A stretch of DNA of 64,000 nt from an uncultured Gammaproteobacteria bacterium (GCA_964394685.1 CAYMYO010000001.1:14-64013); one strand, 5' to 3'; positions 1,094-11,215 are shown, numbered from the stretch's first letter. Program-made: numbers and translations. Notes: generated by a model from the sequence alone, not told the origin.

Positions 1094-1192
1094 TATAACA
1101 AGATAAACATTTCGTTACATACTATTGCGCTATGTGTGTGGAGAGGATCAGTTCAGAATTTGATCAAGCGTTATCTATTTGTGGTATAGTAA

Positions 1193-1387
1193 ATGTATTC
1201 CATGGATAGAAAAACTCAATTTCTCAAAGTGTATGCAAATTTGCCATTAGGCGCCAGGGAAGAAATCGTGGCTGTTGTTGACGGTGAACCGTTGACATGG
1301 AAATCTGCAAAATTAGAGATAGAACAGGATACGCTGAAAGGAAAGCAGGTGTTAGAAACATTGACAAACCTTAAGATTTTACCATGA
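1193..1387 (+). CDS. Small hypothetical protein (64 aa), first gene of a coupled three-gene unit. It shows weak apparent paralogy to the next small ORF.
   Basis: Complete ORF. Its stop overlaps the next start (ATGA at 1384-1387). It shares the pattern EI..V.DG..L..K.AKLE..Q...GKQ..E with the following ORF. Confidence 0.45.
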   Translation: MYSMDRKTQFLKVYANLPLGAREEIVAVVDGEPLTWKSAKLEIEQDTLKGKQVLETLTNLKILP

Positions 1388-1632
1388 CTGATAAAACCCC
1401 AGATCAATTAAAATTAACAGAGGAAGAAAAGAATAAACTTAAGGAACTTGTTTTAGCGCGCCTTTCTGTTATGCCGCAAGAAATCTCCATATCCATTGGT
1501 GATAAGAATTTGGACAAGAAAGCACTTACAGAGCATGTTCAATCAGAAGATGAAATTGGTAAACAAATGATGGAAATGGATCTTGAATTTCTTCAGGACC
1601 TCGCGAGAGGTGCTATTTACGGACATGAATAA
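1384..1632 (+). CDS. Small hypothetical acidic protein (82 aa), second gene of the coupled unit.
   Basis: Complete ORF. Its start overlaps the upstream stop, and its own stop overlaps the downstream start (ATGAATAA at 1625-1632). Confidence 0.45.
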   Translation: MTDKTPDQLKLTEEEKNKLKELVLARLSVMPQEISISIGDKNLDKKALTEHVQSEDEIGKQMMEMDLEFLQDLARGAIYGHE

Positions 1633-2278
1633 TTCCCTTCTTGTTACAAGACCAAATCATGACTCAGCGACCAATTATCTCTATCATTGGACTGAACCGG
1701 TCATTGACGAGGCAAAACGAAAACATATCCCTGTATATGATTTGAAAGAAGACAAAGCAACGAAGAAAAACTTTTTGAGTTATTTGCAATCCAAACATCC
1801 GGGTTTTCTTTTTTTAAATGGCCATGGGGACGCTGAAACTGTTACAGGACAAAATTATGACGTTTTATTGGATAAAACCGTGAATAAAAATTTCGTTTCT
1901 GACACTATAATATACGCAAGAAGTTGTGATTCTGGAAAAATATTAGGAAATACACTGGTACAGCATGGAGTTTTGGCATTTATCGGATATACAAGGAAAT
2001 TTATTGTCGGAACGACGCGATTAAACATAACGAAGCCCCTTAAGGATCCATTAGCAAAATTATTTTTGGAGCCCTCCAATCTCATTCCGACGACGATACT
2101 CAAAGGTCATACTGCAGGTGAAGCAGACCGTCGATCGAAACAGGAGATGCTGAAAAATTTTCAGAAAATGATTTCTAGCGCTGGATCATTTGAAGAACGT
2201 TACGCTGCTCGATGGTTGTGGTCAAATATACGAAGTCAAGTAGTGATAGGTGATCAAAACTCATCCATAAATTCATAA
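1625..2278 (+). CDS. Minimal caspase-like (peptidase C14 / clan CD, orthocaspase-like) domain protein of about 217 aa.
   Basis: The in-frame ATG at 1625 overlaps the upstream stop. A hydrophobic strand precedes the His motif FLFLNGHGD and a second precedes the Cys motif TIIYARSCDSG, with 32 aa between them. This matches the metacaspase pattern FFHYSGHG ... ALFDSCHSG, including a PG before the His strand (KHPGFLFLNGHG). There is no signal peptide or TM segment. Confidence 0.55.
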   Translation: MNNSLLVTRPNHDSATNYLYHWTEPVIDEAKRKHIPVYDLKEDKATKKNFLSYLQSKHPGFLFLNGHGDAETVTGQNYDVLLDKTVNKNFVSDTIIYARSCDSGKILGNTLVQHGVLAFIGYTRKFIVGTTRLNITKPLKDPLAKLFLEPSNLIPTTILKGHTAGEADRRSKQEMLKNFQKMISSAGSFEERYAARWLWSNIRSQVVIGDQNSSINS

Positions 2279-3296: not shown

Positions 3297-3737
3297 GTGC
3301 GTGTGGACAAGGAACGATTACCCCACGGGAAAGCAGTGAACCGGCGAAGGATACTGGCTGAGACTCGGCAAAGAGCGGTGTTTAATGTGGACCAACGGAT
3401 TATCGAGAGAAGCCAAGCGGAGCGGCGTTTGATGGAAATTGATCAGATACTGTCTCCTGATGACCAGACCTTATCTATTATGAACGATCAGGAACGGGAG
3501 CAAACCCGGACCGGTTTGGAGATTGAACGCATTTGGCTGCAATTTAAGTTCAGTATGATCACCCCAGTGGAAAAACAGCGATTACTTGCAGGTAAATTTG
3601 ACGAATTGGAGAAGACCAAACCTGACTTGTACAACTGGTTAGTCGCTAGGAACGAAGACGAGTTGTCTATGGCGGAGCGGATTCGTGATAAGGTGATGCC
3701 ACCCATACGTGTTGCAGGATATTATACAAAGCGCTAG
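3297..3737 (+). CDS. Hypothetical Arg/Glu-rich protein with a GC-rich 5' portion. GTG start; alternative ATG start at 3432.
   Basis: Complete ORF from GTG 3297, with a stop at 3294-3296 just upstream. The N-terminal 45 codons are strongly GC- and Arg-rich, unlike the neighbours. No recognisable family. Confidence 0.35.
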   Translation: MRVDKERLPHGKAVNRRRILAETRQRAVFNVDQRIIERSQAERRLMEIDQILSPDDQTLSIMNDQEREQTRTGLEIERIWLQFKFSMITPVEKQRLLAGKFDELEKTKPDLYNWLVARNEDELSMAERIRDKVMPPIRVAGYYTKR

Positions 3738-3784
3738 TGAATTTCAAAGCGTCAGAACTTCTTCTGAAGGTGTAAAATATATTT

Positions 3785-4456
3785 ATGTACAAACTTTCTC
3801 CGTCCGACTTTGCGTACTTATATGAAGAGTGTAAGTTTTGTTATGTGTTGAAAATCAAACGGGGAGTTATTCGGCCGAGCATGCCCATGCCGGGGGTATT
3901 TTCTGCACTCAATACACGTCTTCAAGGAACGCTTATTGGAAAAGAACTCCGGCAGCTTTCACCAGAACTTCCTGCAGGCATTGTAGAAAGTCAGGAAGGG
4001 CATATAGAATCGCAAGTGATACCCGGAACAAAAGTATATATCAAAGGGAAGTATGATTTGTTAGTCAGGCAGCCGGATAATACGTATCTGATTGTTGATT
4101 TTAAAATCAGCCAGCCAAGTGAGGATAAGACAACCAAATTTCAAACACAACTGCAGGCATATCATTACGCGTTTGAACATCCGGCTCACGGGGAACCGAT
4201 TGTCATAACCAAAACGGGACTCATCATCATGTATCCGGACAAAACAACATTTGAAAACGGCCGGGCAATTCTTGATTTTCCACCGCAGTGGCTGGAAATT
4301 CCCATTGATGAACAAAAATTTTTACGGTTTATGGGAGAGGTGAGTTTGCTTTTGGAAGGACCGACACCCATGGAAAATCCACATTGTCCGTGGTGTCAGT
4401 ATCGGCATTTGGGAGAAAAACTCGCTCATCCGCAAACATTAGATATACCGTTTTAA
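3785..4456 (+). CDS. Cas4/RecB-like PD-(D/E)XK nuclease (DUF83-like) with a putative Fe-S cluster.
   Basis: N-terminal CKFCY and C-terminal CPWC cysteine pairs. Motif II/III YDLLVRQ...YLIVDFKIS (D...D-x-K). QLQAYHYA matches the QxxxY motif of RecB-family nucleases. No cas genes are nearby. Confidence 0.6.
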   Translation: MYKLSPSDFAYLYEECKFCYVLKIKRGVIRPSMPMPGVFSALNTRLQGTLIGKELRQLSPELPAGIVESQEGHIESQVIPGTKVYIKGKYDLLVRQPDNTYLIVDFKISQPSEDKTTKFQTQLQAYHYAFEHPAHGEPIVITKTGLIIMYPDKTTFENGRAILDFPPQWLEIPIDEQKFLRFMGEVSLLLEGPTPMENPHCPWCQYRHLGEKLAHPQTLDIPF

Positions 4457-4481
4457 TTAGTATTTCAAGTATTTTCTTCAC

Positions 4482-4512
4482 AAAAAAACCTCACTTACGC
4501 AAGGTTTTTTGT
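4482..4512. terminator. Bidirectional rho-independent terminator between convergent genes.
   Basis: The stem aaaaaacct (4483-4491) pairs with aggtttttt (4502-4510) around a 10-nt loop. A/T tracts on both sides mean it can serve the Cas4-like gene (+) and cspA (-). Confidence 0.55.
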
Positions 4513-4532
4513 CTTACTTTCTAAAAAGTAAA

Positions 4533-4733
4533 TTACGCTGCTAATTTTACATTCTTTGCAGCCGGTCCTTTTTCTCCATCAACGACGTCAAATTCAACTT
4601 TCGCTCCAACTTGAAGCGCGTCAAACATAACACCGACTAGATCTTTTGAATGAAAGAAAAGGTCTTTTGTTTCGCCGTCACGGGCGATAAAACCAAATCC
4701 TCTATCTGTTTTTACTTTAATTGTACCAGTCAT
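4533..4733 (-). CDS. cspA: Cold-shock protein (CspA family).
   Basis: MTGTIKVKTDRGFGFIARDGETKDLFFHSKDL: RNP1/RNP2 cold-shock domain, 66 aa. Confidence 0.9.
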   Translation of the reverse strand: MTGTIKVKTDRGFGFIARDGETKDLFFHSKDLVGVMFDALQVGAKVEFDVVDGEKGPAAKNVKLAA

Positions 4734-6237: not shown

Positions 6238-6300
6238 CCGGATTCCCGTTCGACTCGAAGACTCGCTCAGAGCGCAGCGAACCGGATTATTTTGTGCCGC
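6238..6300 (+). terminator. GC-rich structured element with terminator-like architecture downstream of the 5640 gene.
   Basis: CCGG(attcccg)TTCG ... CGAACCGG is an interrupted inverted repeat with an internal CGCTC-a-GAGCG hairpin, followed by ATTATTTT. It is preceded by TGTACCCCCA (6229-6238), the same 10-mer found after the LigT-like gene. Confidence 0.4.
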
Positions 6301-6397
6301 GTAAGGGAGTCGGACCCTTGTTGATAGATTGAGAATCTACCGTACTAACCGTTATACGAACGCGGCAGAAGTTACAGCTAATTCTATCAATAACCTC

Positions 6398-8411: not shown

Positions 8412-9272
8412 ATGGATATTAAAGAAATCACCGCGAAGTCTATTCTTACAAAAACGACACTCAAAAATGTTGATTTTGATTATACCGTTAACCCGTATAT
8501 TGGATGTGCGTTTGGTTGTGTGTATTGCTATGCGAGTTTCATGGGGCGGTTTGTCGGTAAGAAAAATGAGGATTGGGGAACATATGTGTTTGTCAAAATC
8601 AACGCTTCCGAATTGCTTGCAAAAGAAATAAAAAAACTTCCAAATAAAGGAAAAGGCAACGCAATTTGGTTTAGTTCTGTCACAGATCCATATCAGGGAC
8701 TCGAAGCAAAATATCAACTGACCAGAAAATGTTTAAAGGTGTTATTGGCATATGGATATGAAGGTGAAGTTCACATTCTCACAAAGTCAGACTTACTCCT
8801 TCGGGATATTGATCTATTCCACTACCTCCCTCGACATTCAGTAGGATTAACCATTACTTCAACTGACGATAAAGTATCCCGCTATTTTGAAAAATTTGCC
8901 CCACCCGTTAGTAAAAGGTTGCAAGCGTTAAAGCAATTGAAAGAAGCCGGTTTACACACATACGCGTTTGTGGGACCGATTCTTCCGCACGTTCTTATGA
9001 ATGAGCATGCAGTGGATCAACTCTTTTACCAGATAGCTGAAACCGGAACCACCTCAATCGTTGTCGAATACTTTAACGCTAGCCCGTATATTCTGAAACG
9101 GTTAGAAAAAGAATTACAAGGGATAAATACAAAAACAATTAATATGTTTCGTTTGTCAAAAAATAGAGAGTATCGGTTGGAATGGGATAAACGAATTAAA
9201 GCGTTGGTATCAAAATATAAGCTTTCATTAGTATACGGCGGAACATTGTATCATCCAGAAATGGAGAAATAA
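8412..9272 (+). CDS. Radical SAM protein, SplB-like (spore photoproduct lyase / DNA repair photolyase family, COG1533).
   Basis: NPYIGCAFGCVYCYA carries the CxxxCxxC radical SAM motif in the context typical of SplB-like proteins. Confidence 0.7.
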   Translation: MDIKEITAKSILTKTTLKNVDFDYTVNPYIGCAFGCVYCYASFMGRFVGKKNEDWGTYVFVKINASELLAKEIKKLPNKGKGNAIWFSSVTDPYQGLEAKYQLTRKCLKVLLAYGYEGEVHILTKSDLLLRDIDLFHYLPRHSVGLTITSTDDKVSRYFEKFAPPVSKRLQALKQLKEAGLHTYAFVGPILPHVLMNEHAVDQLFYQIAETGTTSIVVEYFNASPYILKRLEKELQGINTKTINMFRLSKNREYRLEWDKRIKALVSKYKLSLVYGGTLYHPEMEK

Positions 9273-9273
9273 T

Positions 9274-9894
9274 ATGAAAAAACTTCTTGTTGCTACAACA
9301 AATCCAGGTAAGCTTGCGGAACTTCAGGAATTTTTGTCTGATCTTCCTATTACACTTGTGAGTCTCAAAGATGTTGGGATTACGTCGCATGTTGAGGAAA
9401 CCGGAAAAACATTTAAAGACAATGCGCTCCTGAAAGCAACCCATTATGCAAAAGATTCAGGACTTCCAACGATTGCTGATGATGGAGGGCTTGAAATTGA
9501 CGCGTTAAACGGAGAACCTGGTGTGAATTCCCATCGATGGATTCATGGGGACAGAGAAGATGAAGACGAGGAGCTCATACAACATGCACTGATTCGATTA
9601 AAAGATACTCCCGAAGAAAAGCGTGGAGCACAACTTCATTTAGTCATAGCTTTTGCAACGCCTGACGGGAAAACGTACACTAGTGAAGGACGTATCCGAG
9701 GGATTATTCCATATAAGGCGTCTTCATACCGACGCAAAGGATTTCCATACCGGTCGCTTCTGTATCTTCCCGAGTTGAAAAAGTTTTACAACCATGATGA
9801 ATTGACCGAAGAAGAGAATAAAACATATAATCATAGGAAGAAGGCAATAGAGGACCTGAAGACCATTATTCGTGACACACTATTGTCATCCTGA
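9274..9894 (+). CDS. rdgB: Non-canonical purine NTP pyrophosphatase (RdgB/HAM1, dITP/XTP pyrophosphatase).
   Basis: VATTNPGKLAELQEF...IADDGGLEIDALNGEPGVNSHRW: Ham1 family signature. Confidence 0.85.
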   Translation: MKKLLVATTNPGKLAELQEFLSDLPITLVSLKDVGITSHVEETGKTFKDNALLKATHYAKDSGLPTIADDGGLEIDALNGEPGVNSHRWIHGDREDEDEELIQHALIRLKDTPEEKRGAQLHLVIAFATPDGKTYTSEGRIRGIIPYKASSYRRKGFPYRSLLYLPELKKFYNHDELTEEENKTYNHRKKAIEDLKTIIRDTLLSS

Positions 9895-9909
9895 ACTTGT
9901 TTCAGGATC
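9885..9909 (+). repeat. Conserved hairpin element H1 (GTCATCCTGAA-cttgt-TTCAGGATC). It overlaps the rdgB stop codon.
   Basis: 8-bp stem 9888-9895 / 9901-9908 with loop CTTGT. The rdgB TGA (9892-9894) lies in the 5' arm. It is near-identical to H5 at 16541-16565 apart from a compensatory T:A to C:G change. Confidence 0.65.
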
Positions 9910-9926
9910 TATCGGAAAAAGAAAAA

Positions 9927-9954
9927 TGGATGCTGAAATGAATTCAGCATGACA
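9927..9954 (-). repeat. Conserved hairpin element H2 (reverse orientation; its reverse complement is TGTCATGCTGAA-ttcat-TTCAGCATCC).
   Basis: 8-bp stem ATGCTGAA 9930-9937 / TTCAGCAT 9943-9950. It is the reverse complement of H3 at 11874-11901 apart from loop differences. Confidence 0.65.
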
Positions 9955-9970
9955 AAGAAAACAAAACGCT

Positions 9971-11215
9971 ATGTTAGATATTCATTTCATTAAAGAGAAT
10001 TTAGATCTCTGCAAACTCGCTGCTAAAAATAAAAACCGTGAAGTAGAGTGGGAGAAATTGTTATCTCTTGATGAGACGAGACGGAAGTTAATTACATCTG
10101 TTGAGGATTTACGGGCGCAGCGGAATGAAATCAGCAGAAAACCCGTTGAACAAGCCCGCGTTGAAGGAAAACAGATCAAAGAGTCGTTAAGGGGTCTGGA
10201 AGAAGAGCTTCGGCGGGTTGAAGAAGAACTACAGATACTTCTTTTGACTGTTCCTAATGTTCCGGATAAATCAGTGCCGGTGGGGAAAGACGCTTCAGGA
10301 AATGTAGAGATTCGGAAATGGGGAGATCTTCCCGTGTTTGATTATACACCGCGTGATCATATTGAATTAGCAAAGAAAAATGATTTAGTTGATTTTGAAC
10401 GGGGAGCAAAAGTCGGAGGATTTCGAACATATTTTACAAAAAATGAAGCAGTGCTTCTCGAAATGGGACTCCTTTTTTATGCAATGCAGAAACTGGTGGG
10501 AAAAGGATATACACCTCTTATGGCTCCATCGCTATTAAAAGAGTTCACGCTTTTTGGAATTGCACAATTTCCATGGGGAAGAGATGAAGTATATCATTTG
10601 GAGAAAGACGATGTATATCTTGCAGGTACTGCGGAACAACCAGTGACGGCATATTTATCTGATGAGATATTGATGGAAAAGGATTTACCAAAGAAGTTTG
10701 TTGCATTTTCTCCTTGTTTTCGAAGGGAATCAGGAAGTTACGGAAAGGATACAAAAGGGATTTATAGAGTGCACCAATTTAATAAAATTGAACAAGTAAT
10801 TATTTCAACTTCTGATTCGAGTAAATCTCTTACTCTTTTAGAGGAATTACTCGCTAACGCAGAGGAAATTCTTCAAGATTTAAAATTGCCGTATCGGGTG
10901 CTGTCGATGTGCACGGGAGATATGGGTGAACCGCAAGTGAAAAAATACGATATTGAAACCTGGATGCCTAGTAGAAATGCATATGGCGAAACAATGTCCG
11001 ATTCATTTATGGGAGATTTTCAAGCAAGAAGACTGAAAATTCGATACCGGGGGAAAGACGGAAAAATGGTATTTTGCCATACGCTCAATAATACAGCAAT
11101 TGCATTTCCACGAATTCTTATTCCAATATTTGAAAATTATCAGCAAAAAGATGGTTCAATCCGCGTGCCCAAAGTCCTCGTTCCCTTTGTCGGGAAGGAT
11201 GTGATCTCGCGGTGA
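9971..11215 (+). CDS. serS: Seryl-tRNA synthetase.
   Basis: N-terminal coiled-coil arm followed by class II core motifs (FRRESGSYGKDTKGIYRVHQFNKIE; TLNNTAIAFPRILI). Confidence 0.95.
   Translation: MLDIHFIKENLDLCKLAAKNKNREVEWEKLLSLDETRRKLITSVEDLRAQRNEISRKPVEQARVEGKQIKESLRGLEEELRRVEEELQILLLTVPNVPDKSVPVGKDASGNVEIRKWGDLPVFDYTPRDHIELAKKNDLVDFERGAKVGGFRTYFTKNEAVLLEMGLLFYAMQKLVGKGYTPLMAPSLLKEFTLFGIAQFPWGRDEVYHLEKDDVYLAGTAEQPVTAYLSDEILMEKDLPKKFVAFSPCFRRESGSYGKDTKGIYRVHQFNKIEQVIISTSDSSKSLTLLEELLANAEEILQDLKLPYRVLSMCTGDMGEPQVKKYDIETWMPSRNAYGETMSDSFMGDFQARRLKIRYRGKDGKMVFCHTLNNTAIAFPRILIPIFENYQQKDGSIRVPKVLVPFVGKDVISR

Follow-up and report, generated by a model that had tools for sequence, protein, structure and literature searches.

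The 64-kb stretch of DNA analysed here (the window) contains a cassette of three overlapping genes, in which two genes for small proteins, A and B, are followed on the same strand by C, the gene for a predicted cysteine peptidase. Its features are listed below, with all positions counted in the window.

1182..1190, + strand: possible extended -10 element TGgTATAGT in the intergenic region between hflX and A, identified by reading only
1202..1387, + strand: gene A, 61 aa (the alternative ATG at 1193 gives 64 aa)
1384..1387, + strand: A/B junction ATGA, where the ATG of B and the TGA of A overlap; direct sequence reading
1384..1632, + strand: gene B, 82 aa, a small acidic protein; ORF call
1625..1632, + strand: B/C junction ATGAATAA, where C starts 8 nt inside the end of B; direct sequence reading
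1625..2278, + strand: gene C, 217 aa, predicted single-domain clan CD cysteine peptidase
1823..1825, + strand: codon CAT of His67, in the NGHG motif, predicted catalytic, just past strand 3 (residues 61-64)
1925..1927, + strand: codon TGT of Cys101, in the YARSC motif, predicted catalytic, just past strand 4 (residues 95-98)

An earlier note on this DNA had described A, B and C as three open reading frames coupled through the overlaps ATGA and ATGAATAA, and this arrangement can be read directly at the locus. Each of the two overlaps is also the commonest solution among 48 non-redundant relatives, the 4-nt A/B overlap occurring in 21 and the 8-nt B/C overlap in 17 of them. The gene upstream of the cassette lies on the opposite strand, running from about position 1027 off the window edge, and matches GTP-bdg_N, GTP-bdg_M and MMR_HSR1, so that the cassette is indeed divergent from hflX, as had been proposed. 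The next gene 3' of C is mltG/yceG.

The start codons of A and C each have a competitor. For A, the ATG at 1202 is likelier than that at 1193, since the relatives of A are mostly 60-63 aa long and a public protein of 61 aa is 100% identical to A over the matched part. For C, an upstream TTG at 1583 would make the protein 231 aa long; its relatives begin with MNKSLLVTRP, and the start is therefore placed at ATG 1625. The scan for promoters and terminators was uninformative for the cassette. The possible extended -10 element at 1182-1190, which ends 2 nt short of ATG 1193, was not called by the consensus promoter scan because it has no -35 hexamer at a spacing of 16-18 nt. If this promoter is real, the transcript would exclude ATG 1193 and ATG 1202 would be nearly leaderless, which is consistent with the 61-aa length of the A relatives.

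A word-index search returned 302 relatives of C, and an exhaustive profile search yielded 1986 clusters at 50% identity (E <= 1e-3). Of these, 319 reach E <= 1e-30 and about 1000 form a distant tail with E between 1e-10 and 1e-3. The best 150 of the 1986 clusters are all single-domain proteins, mostly of about 205-220 aa, with some shorter fragments. In a genome scan restricted to one genome per species, from which 80 loci were kept, at least 211 species-level genomes were found to have a C relative. When profile HMMs of A and B were applied, 87 of 92 C matches proved to have both genes upstream, in the A-B-C order and on the same strand. The remaining five trace to four loci, three of which (L010, L019 and L083) lie at the start of a contig. 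At L019 and L083, B is still visible, and at L010 (41-679) C is split into two matches or ORFs, reflecting a frameshift, a pseudogene or a sequencing error. At the fourth locus, L067 (4001-4492), C is a truncated remnant that begins with residue 48 and lacks the first 47, and A and B are missing as well; it is the sole locus at which C is unaccompanied for a reason other than the end of a contig. Individual look-ups agree with the scan. Starting from four C relatives (Gottesmanbacteria, Beckwithbacteria, Giovannonibacteria and assembly GCA_000397985), two small genes of 61-67 and 67-85 aa were found directly upstream each time, with entirely different flanking genes in all four cases. Starting from three diverse A proteins, B and C were found downstream in all three. 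Conservation of the gene order in related genomes, which the earlier note had made a test of its proposal, is thus borne out.

Clustering of the ORFs around 84 non-redundant loci revealed neither a fourth conserved gene, no other family being present in more than 4 of the loci, nor a conserved defence neighbourhood. The cassette is therefore self-contained, and hflX, mltG and a nearby PD-(D/E)XK nuclease gene are not part of it. The nuclease gene (223 aa, window positions 3785-4456) has a counterpart on a related contig, P0004, whose C is 82% identical to that of the window and where a 223-aa PDDEXK_1 gene directly follows the cassette; in the window, the two are separated by mltG and a 146-aa ORF. 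The shared nuclease probably represents local synteny among close relatives and not a component of the module. The 146-aa ORF (3297-3737), located between mltG and the nuclease gene, is charged, looks helical and has no Pfam match. The P0004 contig (JGI 3300075153) also carries, at 8745-10159, on the opposite strand and about 4 kb downstream of the cassette, two genes of 217 and 207 aa without a Pfam match, the former having the same length as C, of which it might be a second copy. The window has a G+C content of 39%, and a tRNA-Glu(CTC) gene at 6294-6366 on the minus strand is its sole tRNA or Rfam match.

The named relatives belong to the ultrasmall Patescibacteria (CPR), namely to Gottesman-, Beckwith-, Davies-, Levy-, Shapiro-, Roizman-, Woese-, Collier-, Nomura-, Giovannoni-, Uhr- and Magasanikbacteria and to Paceibacterota. 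The cassette is also seen in many third-party bins (L009, L015, L016, L022, L036 and others) labelled Gammaproteobacteria, Pseudomonadales or Saccharibacteria, and in one bin labelled Altiarchaeales (L078); these labels are probably unreliable, and we suspect that those of Gammaproteobacteria, Pseudomonadales and Altiarchaeales are wrong. The closest relatives of each C come mostly from the same named lineage, which suggests mainly vertical descent. There are exceptions, such as the lineage of the window itself, which is closer to Beckwithbacteria (57%) and to Parcubacteria-type sequences (54%) than to a second Gottesmanbacteria lineage (46%). There is one copy of the cassette in the 64-kb window. 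Two copies each, on different contigs, were found in the assembled genomes of Beckwithbacteria JAZDKF01 and in Roizmanbacteria PFTH01 (L010/L011 and L034/L040), and these could be either true paralogs or strain mixtures.

An AlphaFold2 model of C, built on an alignment of 41 relatives, has a mean pLDDT of 96.9 and a pTM of 0.93. It consists of strand b1 (residues 5-9), helices, b2 (37-41), a helix, b3 (61-64) and b4 (95-98), followed by a helix, b5 (118-122), three long helices (142-204) and b6 (205-209). A review of clan CD describes the clan as having an alpha/beta/alpha sandwich whose central sheet corresponds to strands b1-b6 of the caspases. The model of C displays such a sandwich, with His67 three residues past b3, Cys101 three residues past b4, and the His preceding the Cys. 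The caspase-haemoglobinase fold, the placement of the dyad and the lack of accessory domains, all of which had been anticipated from the sequence, are thus recovered in the predicted structure. The motifs NGHG and ARSC from which the dyad had been recognised are real as well: both His67 and Cys101 are invariant in the 41 relatives and in 79 non-redundant relatives from genomes, and they are kept even in a viral homolog that is only 26% identical. Across the 79 sequences, N65, G68, G75, G108, G121, Y122 and D141 are likewise invariant, and the near-invariant positions include T8, R9, P10, D13, W22, D39, P138 and N152. Judged by this model, C is a catalytically intact-looking clan CD domain. From the same model we infer that His67 and Cys101 are juxtaposed in space, and likewise the make-up of the S1 pocket.

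The same conservation pattern bears on the idea that C is a non-catalytic caspase-fold scaffold, comparable to the caspase-like domain of Raptor, and that the trio forms a purely structural complex. Pseudo-enzymes normally lose their catalytic residues, whereas in C the His, the Cys and the glycines flanking the His are retained by all 79 sequences and by the remote homolog from the virus. We find the scaffold idea barely credible. We hold it to be very probable that C is an active peptidase of clan CD and that A and B are its dedicated partners.

The assignment of C to a particular family within the clan is a different matter. The earlier note had called C a caspase-like protease of family C14; the clan CD part of this description stands on the predicted fold, but the C14 part does not, since there is no profile match. 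Neither Peptidase_C14, for which matches were reported to E <= 1, nor CHAT gave a Pfam match for the window C or for any of the 41 relatives, so that the profile search suggested at the outset came back negative. Searches with the window C returned nothing from Pfam, NCBIfam or PDB sequences, and the C family profile likewise finds no PDB sequence, gingipains included. In structural comparisons with the C model, the best scores belong to Gingipain R (17.7; 4ief_B, 174 residues at 2.4 A), Gingipain K (17.0) and activated SAVED-CHAT (16.0), followed by Metacaspase-9 (13.5; the metacaspases as a group score 12.6-13.5), separase (13.0), legumain (12.4), MALT1 (11.9), GPI transamidase (10.9), caspases (about 10-11) and clostripain-like C11 (about 10). 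In other words, the closest structural relatives are not C14 enzymes, gingipains and SAVED-CHAT being nearer than caspases and metacaspases. Peptidase_C25 (PF01364, gathering score 23 bits) is also the only recurring Pfam signal in the C family. One of the 41 relatives, P0037, matches it with 29.2 bits over residues 45-215 (profile positions 215-374), and two more distant members match it in the His-Cys region with 19.9 and 15.0 bits, below the gathering score; the window C itself has no Peptidase_C25 match. The spacing between the catalytic residues is 34 in C as compared to 33 in Kgp (His444, Cys477). We conclude that C founds or joins an unannotated, outlying clan CD family that is nearest to C25 and CHAT and is reduced to the bare catalytic domain. 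To our knowledge, C is among the smallest clan CD proteases.

The comparison with gingipains also offers a hint about specificity. The invariant Asp141 of C is located at Cys+40, near the position of the Kgp pocket residue Asp516 (Cys477+39), and Gln282 and Trp284, which line the S1 pocket of RgpB, lie 38 and 40 residues past Cys244. By this spacing argument, C may prefer a basic residue at P1. We also considered a caspase-like acidic S1 pocket formed by Arg9 and Arg99. This candidate is weakened by the finding that Arg99, two residues before the Cys, is replaced by Leu in a large subfamily, which argues against Arg99 as a general specificity determinant.

How does the cassette compare with systems that use related folds? 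Gingipains are secreted multidomain proteins with a prodomain, Ig-like and adhesin domains and a C-terminal secretion domain. In contrast to RgpB and Kgp of family C25, C has no prodomain, no Ig-like or adhesin domains and no C-terminal secretion signal; the protein begins directly at strand 1, and no signal peptide was noted by reading. C is probably cytoplasmic. Gingipains also lack the two small partner genes, whereas C is encoded with both. The CHAT proteases, such as SAVED-CHAT, Csx29 (the TPR-CHAT of Craspase) and the DdvA anti-sigma factor, differ from C in that C has neither a sensor domain (SAVED, TPR) nor a CRISPR or CBASS neighbourhood. With the caspases, metacaspases and orthocaspases of C14, C shares the clan CD fold and a dyad placed after strands 3 and 4, but it lacks their p20/p10 linker architecture. 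For the cassette as a whole, the closest functional analogies are offered by separase-securin and by the caspase cascades of prokaryotes. In the former pair, separase is a eukaryotic protein of very large size and securin is disordered, whereas A is confidently folded, and there is no sequence relationship between that pair and the cassette. In the prokaryotic caspase cascades, a CHAT or caspase-like protease acts with co-encoded partners (bioRxiv 10.1101/2023.06.23.546230). Our search of the literature found no description of the A, B or C family or of the cassette, and the family databases gave no significant match to the three window proteins, in keeping with the initial impression that the module had not been described. 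We rate the cassette as a new minimal clan CD family together with a new family of small-protein partners, within a known clan.

Turning to these partners, A and B are not chance ORFs, since they are syntenic with C in the 87 matches noted above and since synonymous differences exceed amino acid-changing ones in both genes. When the window was compared codon by codon with a relative whose C is 80% identical, the ratio of synonymous to amino acid-changing differences was 15:5 for A, 19:9 for B and 46:43 for C. The two small ORFs, which could have been spurious, can thus be taken as real genes, translationally coupled through overlaps of the commonest kind. A is roughly neutral to slightly acidic and has relatives in 2229 clusters at 90% identity. 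Its model (pLDDT 94.1) is confident and folded from end to end, with no long linker, and comprises helices at 3-12 and 16-20, a beta hairpin (22-26, 29-32) and helices at 33-41 and 45-56; no match to it was found among solved folds. B starts with about 18 variable, probably flexible residues. In the conserved core that comes after them, R26, G39 and G59 are invariant, and V23, G76 and Y79 almost so. The protein ends with a conserved G-x-x-Y and a variable tail that is short (0-6 residues or more). B is acidic, with a net charge of -7 in the window copy and a median of -4, and C is basic, with a pI of 9.4 in the window copy and a median net charge of +6. For both A and B, Pfam has no match, NCBIfam, PADLOC and PHROGs gave none that was significant, and searches of PDB sequences, with single sequences and with profiles, produced nothing usable. 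The B profile did pick up a designed double-psi beta-barrel (E 0.069), without any significant stretch, which we put down to chance. Compared with their relatives, the window copies of A, C and B show mean identities of 53%, 44% and 36%, respectively, so that A is the most constrained of the three.

These properties help to weigh what A and B might be to the protease. They could be its substrates, one of the two roles put forward in the earlier note, C cleaving a precursor A and/or B and thereby freeing an active fragment, as in caspase- or gasdermin-type activation. The tight genetic coupling of both genes to an apparently active protease would suit such a role, and so would the variable N-terminal segment of B that precedes its core. 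However, A is folded over its whole length and is more conserved than the enzyme that would cleave it, neither A nor B contains a hydrophobic or amphipathic effector-like segment, and no invariant basic or acidic residue that might mark a cleavage site was found in an exposed loop. The conserved D/E-T...G motif coincides with the beginning of helix 4, where it could be serving as a helix cap. For these reasons the substrate role seems unlikely to us.

Another option is that C acts, in the manner of PorU, GPI8 and the legumain-type ligases of clan CD, as a transpeptidase or ligase, which would trim the short C-terminal tail of A or B and attach the small protein to another molecule, in a minimal form of protein tagging. 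Clan CD, and family C25 within it, include transpeptidases. The conserved G-x-x-Y with a short variable tail at the end of B would fit such processing, and A and B are conserved more strongly than a simple inhibitor would require. Against this, A was found to have no conserved recognition motif at its C-terminus, the B tail varies too much to define a sorting signal, and there is neither a candidate acceptor nor an additional conserved gene. The idea is speculative, and we hold it to be highly improbable. A related candidate, B as a Pup-like tag, was prompted by the end of the window copy (YGHE) and was rejected because the C-termini are not conserved across 48 relatives.

The earlier note had also proposed that A and B arose by tandem duplication, on the basis of a loose shared motif. 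This motif was aligned by BLASTP, hhalign and HMM comparison, all of which pair the same stretch, comprising the hairpin, helix 3 and the start of helix 4, but the statistical support is moderate. BLASTP of the window A against B gave an E of 0.21. With hhalign, P was 8.8e-4 (probability 23%) for alignments of 48 sequences and 2.4e-3 (probability 12%) for larger alignments, both runs covering the same 31-32 columns. In the 48-sequence set, the B HMM scored several A sequences with E from 6e-5 to 1e-3. A and B are probably homologous and would then be distant paralogs.

A further angle on this relationship is provided by the viral homolog of C. It is encoded by BK063666.1 (Caudoviricetes sp. 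vir519, locus L088 in our set), whose host is given as Methanofastidiosa, within a cassette at 3705-4648. The C homolog is 248 aa long and carries GHG and LSC motifs. Towards its C-terminus lies a hydrophobic segment that could be read as a membrane anchor. Just one small gene, of 66 aa, precedes that of the C homolog and overlaps it by 4 nt; its product is recognised by the A HMM (E 1e-3) as well as by the B HMM (E 5e-5), over the same stretch. The pair has the appearance of a two-gene cassette that exists outside Patescibacteria. In our reading, the ancestral state was one small gene plus the protease, and the small gene was duplicated in Patescibacteria.

The presence of a homologous pair in a virus genome makes it tempting to view the cassette as a toxin-antitoxin-like or abortive-infection module, with C as a toxic protease, the acidic B as its antitoxin and A as a regulator or chaperone. 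Several other features could be cited in favour: the small genes come first and the enzyme last, with overlapping start and stop codons, a basic enzyme has an acidic partner, the flanks are variable, and some genomes (L010/L011, L034/L040) have two copies. Yet the searches for a mobile or defence-related context do not support it, nor do they support the possible link to cell death or defence raised in the earlier note. In PADLOC-DB 2.0, A and B had no match and the best match of C was non-significant (E 0.018); PHROGs gave no significant match (best E 0.017), and neither the plasmid search nor the IMG/VR pattern search returned a match for the cassette. There is no inverted repeat that could serve as an operator upstream of A, in the interval 1020-1215, and A has no recognisable DNA-binding fold. 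The mainly vertical descent suggested by the closest C relatives also speaks against this view, as does the conservation of A across classes, which exceeds what we would expect of an antitoxin. We consider a module of this type quite unlikely.

The reading that we prefer, at a probability of roughly 45%, is that A, B and C make up a self-contained, translationally coupled operon of Patescibacteria in which the partners regulate a clan CD peptidase. According to this proposal, the three proteins would be made in a fixed ratio and would assemble as a stoichiometric complex, perhaps with an A-B heterodimer formed through the beta hairpins. A and B would act on the basic protease by gating or inhibiting its active site or by serving as substrate adaptors, and thus as regulators rather than disposable substrates, and the regulated C would then cleave other targets. 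A regulatory role is suggested by the slower evolution of A relative to the enzyme, by its being folded throughout, by the absence of an invariant cleavable loop residue, and by the pairing of a basic enzyme with an acidic partner. The probability left over by this and the four other readings (substrates, transpeptidase, toxin-antitoxin-like module, scaffold) is reserved for one outside them.

Going further, it might be imagined that the cassette is a hitherto unrecognised type of device for regulated proteolysis or protein tagging, widespread in Patescibacteria, in which a minimal gingipain-like or CHAT-like enzyme is switched by, or covalently transfers, small proteins of a new fold (the A/B family), and that the pairing is old; this broader picture is decidedly unlikely as a whole. 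The antiquity of the protease-small-protein pairing would follow from the one-partner version kept by a virus of an archaeal host. A large part of bacterial diversity falls within Patescibacteria, and the majority of the conserved genes in this group lack an assigned function. The cassette is compact (about 1.1 kb) and is present in at least 211 species-level genomes, with about 2000 clusters of C at 50% identity, and it represents a tractable experimental entry to regulated proteolysis in these bacteria. It also offers a minimal model for the control of caspase-fold enzymes by small proteins. If A and B prove to be inhibitors, adaptors or transferable tags, they would constitute a new family and a new mode of clan CD control.
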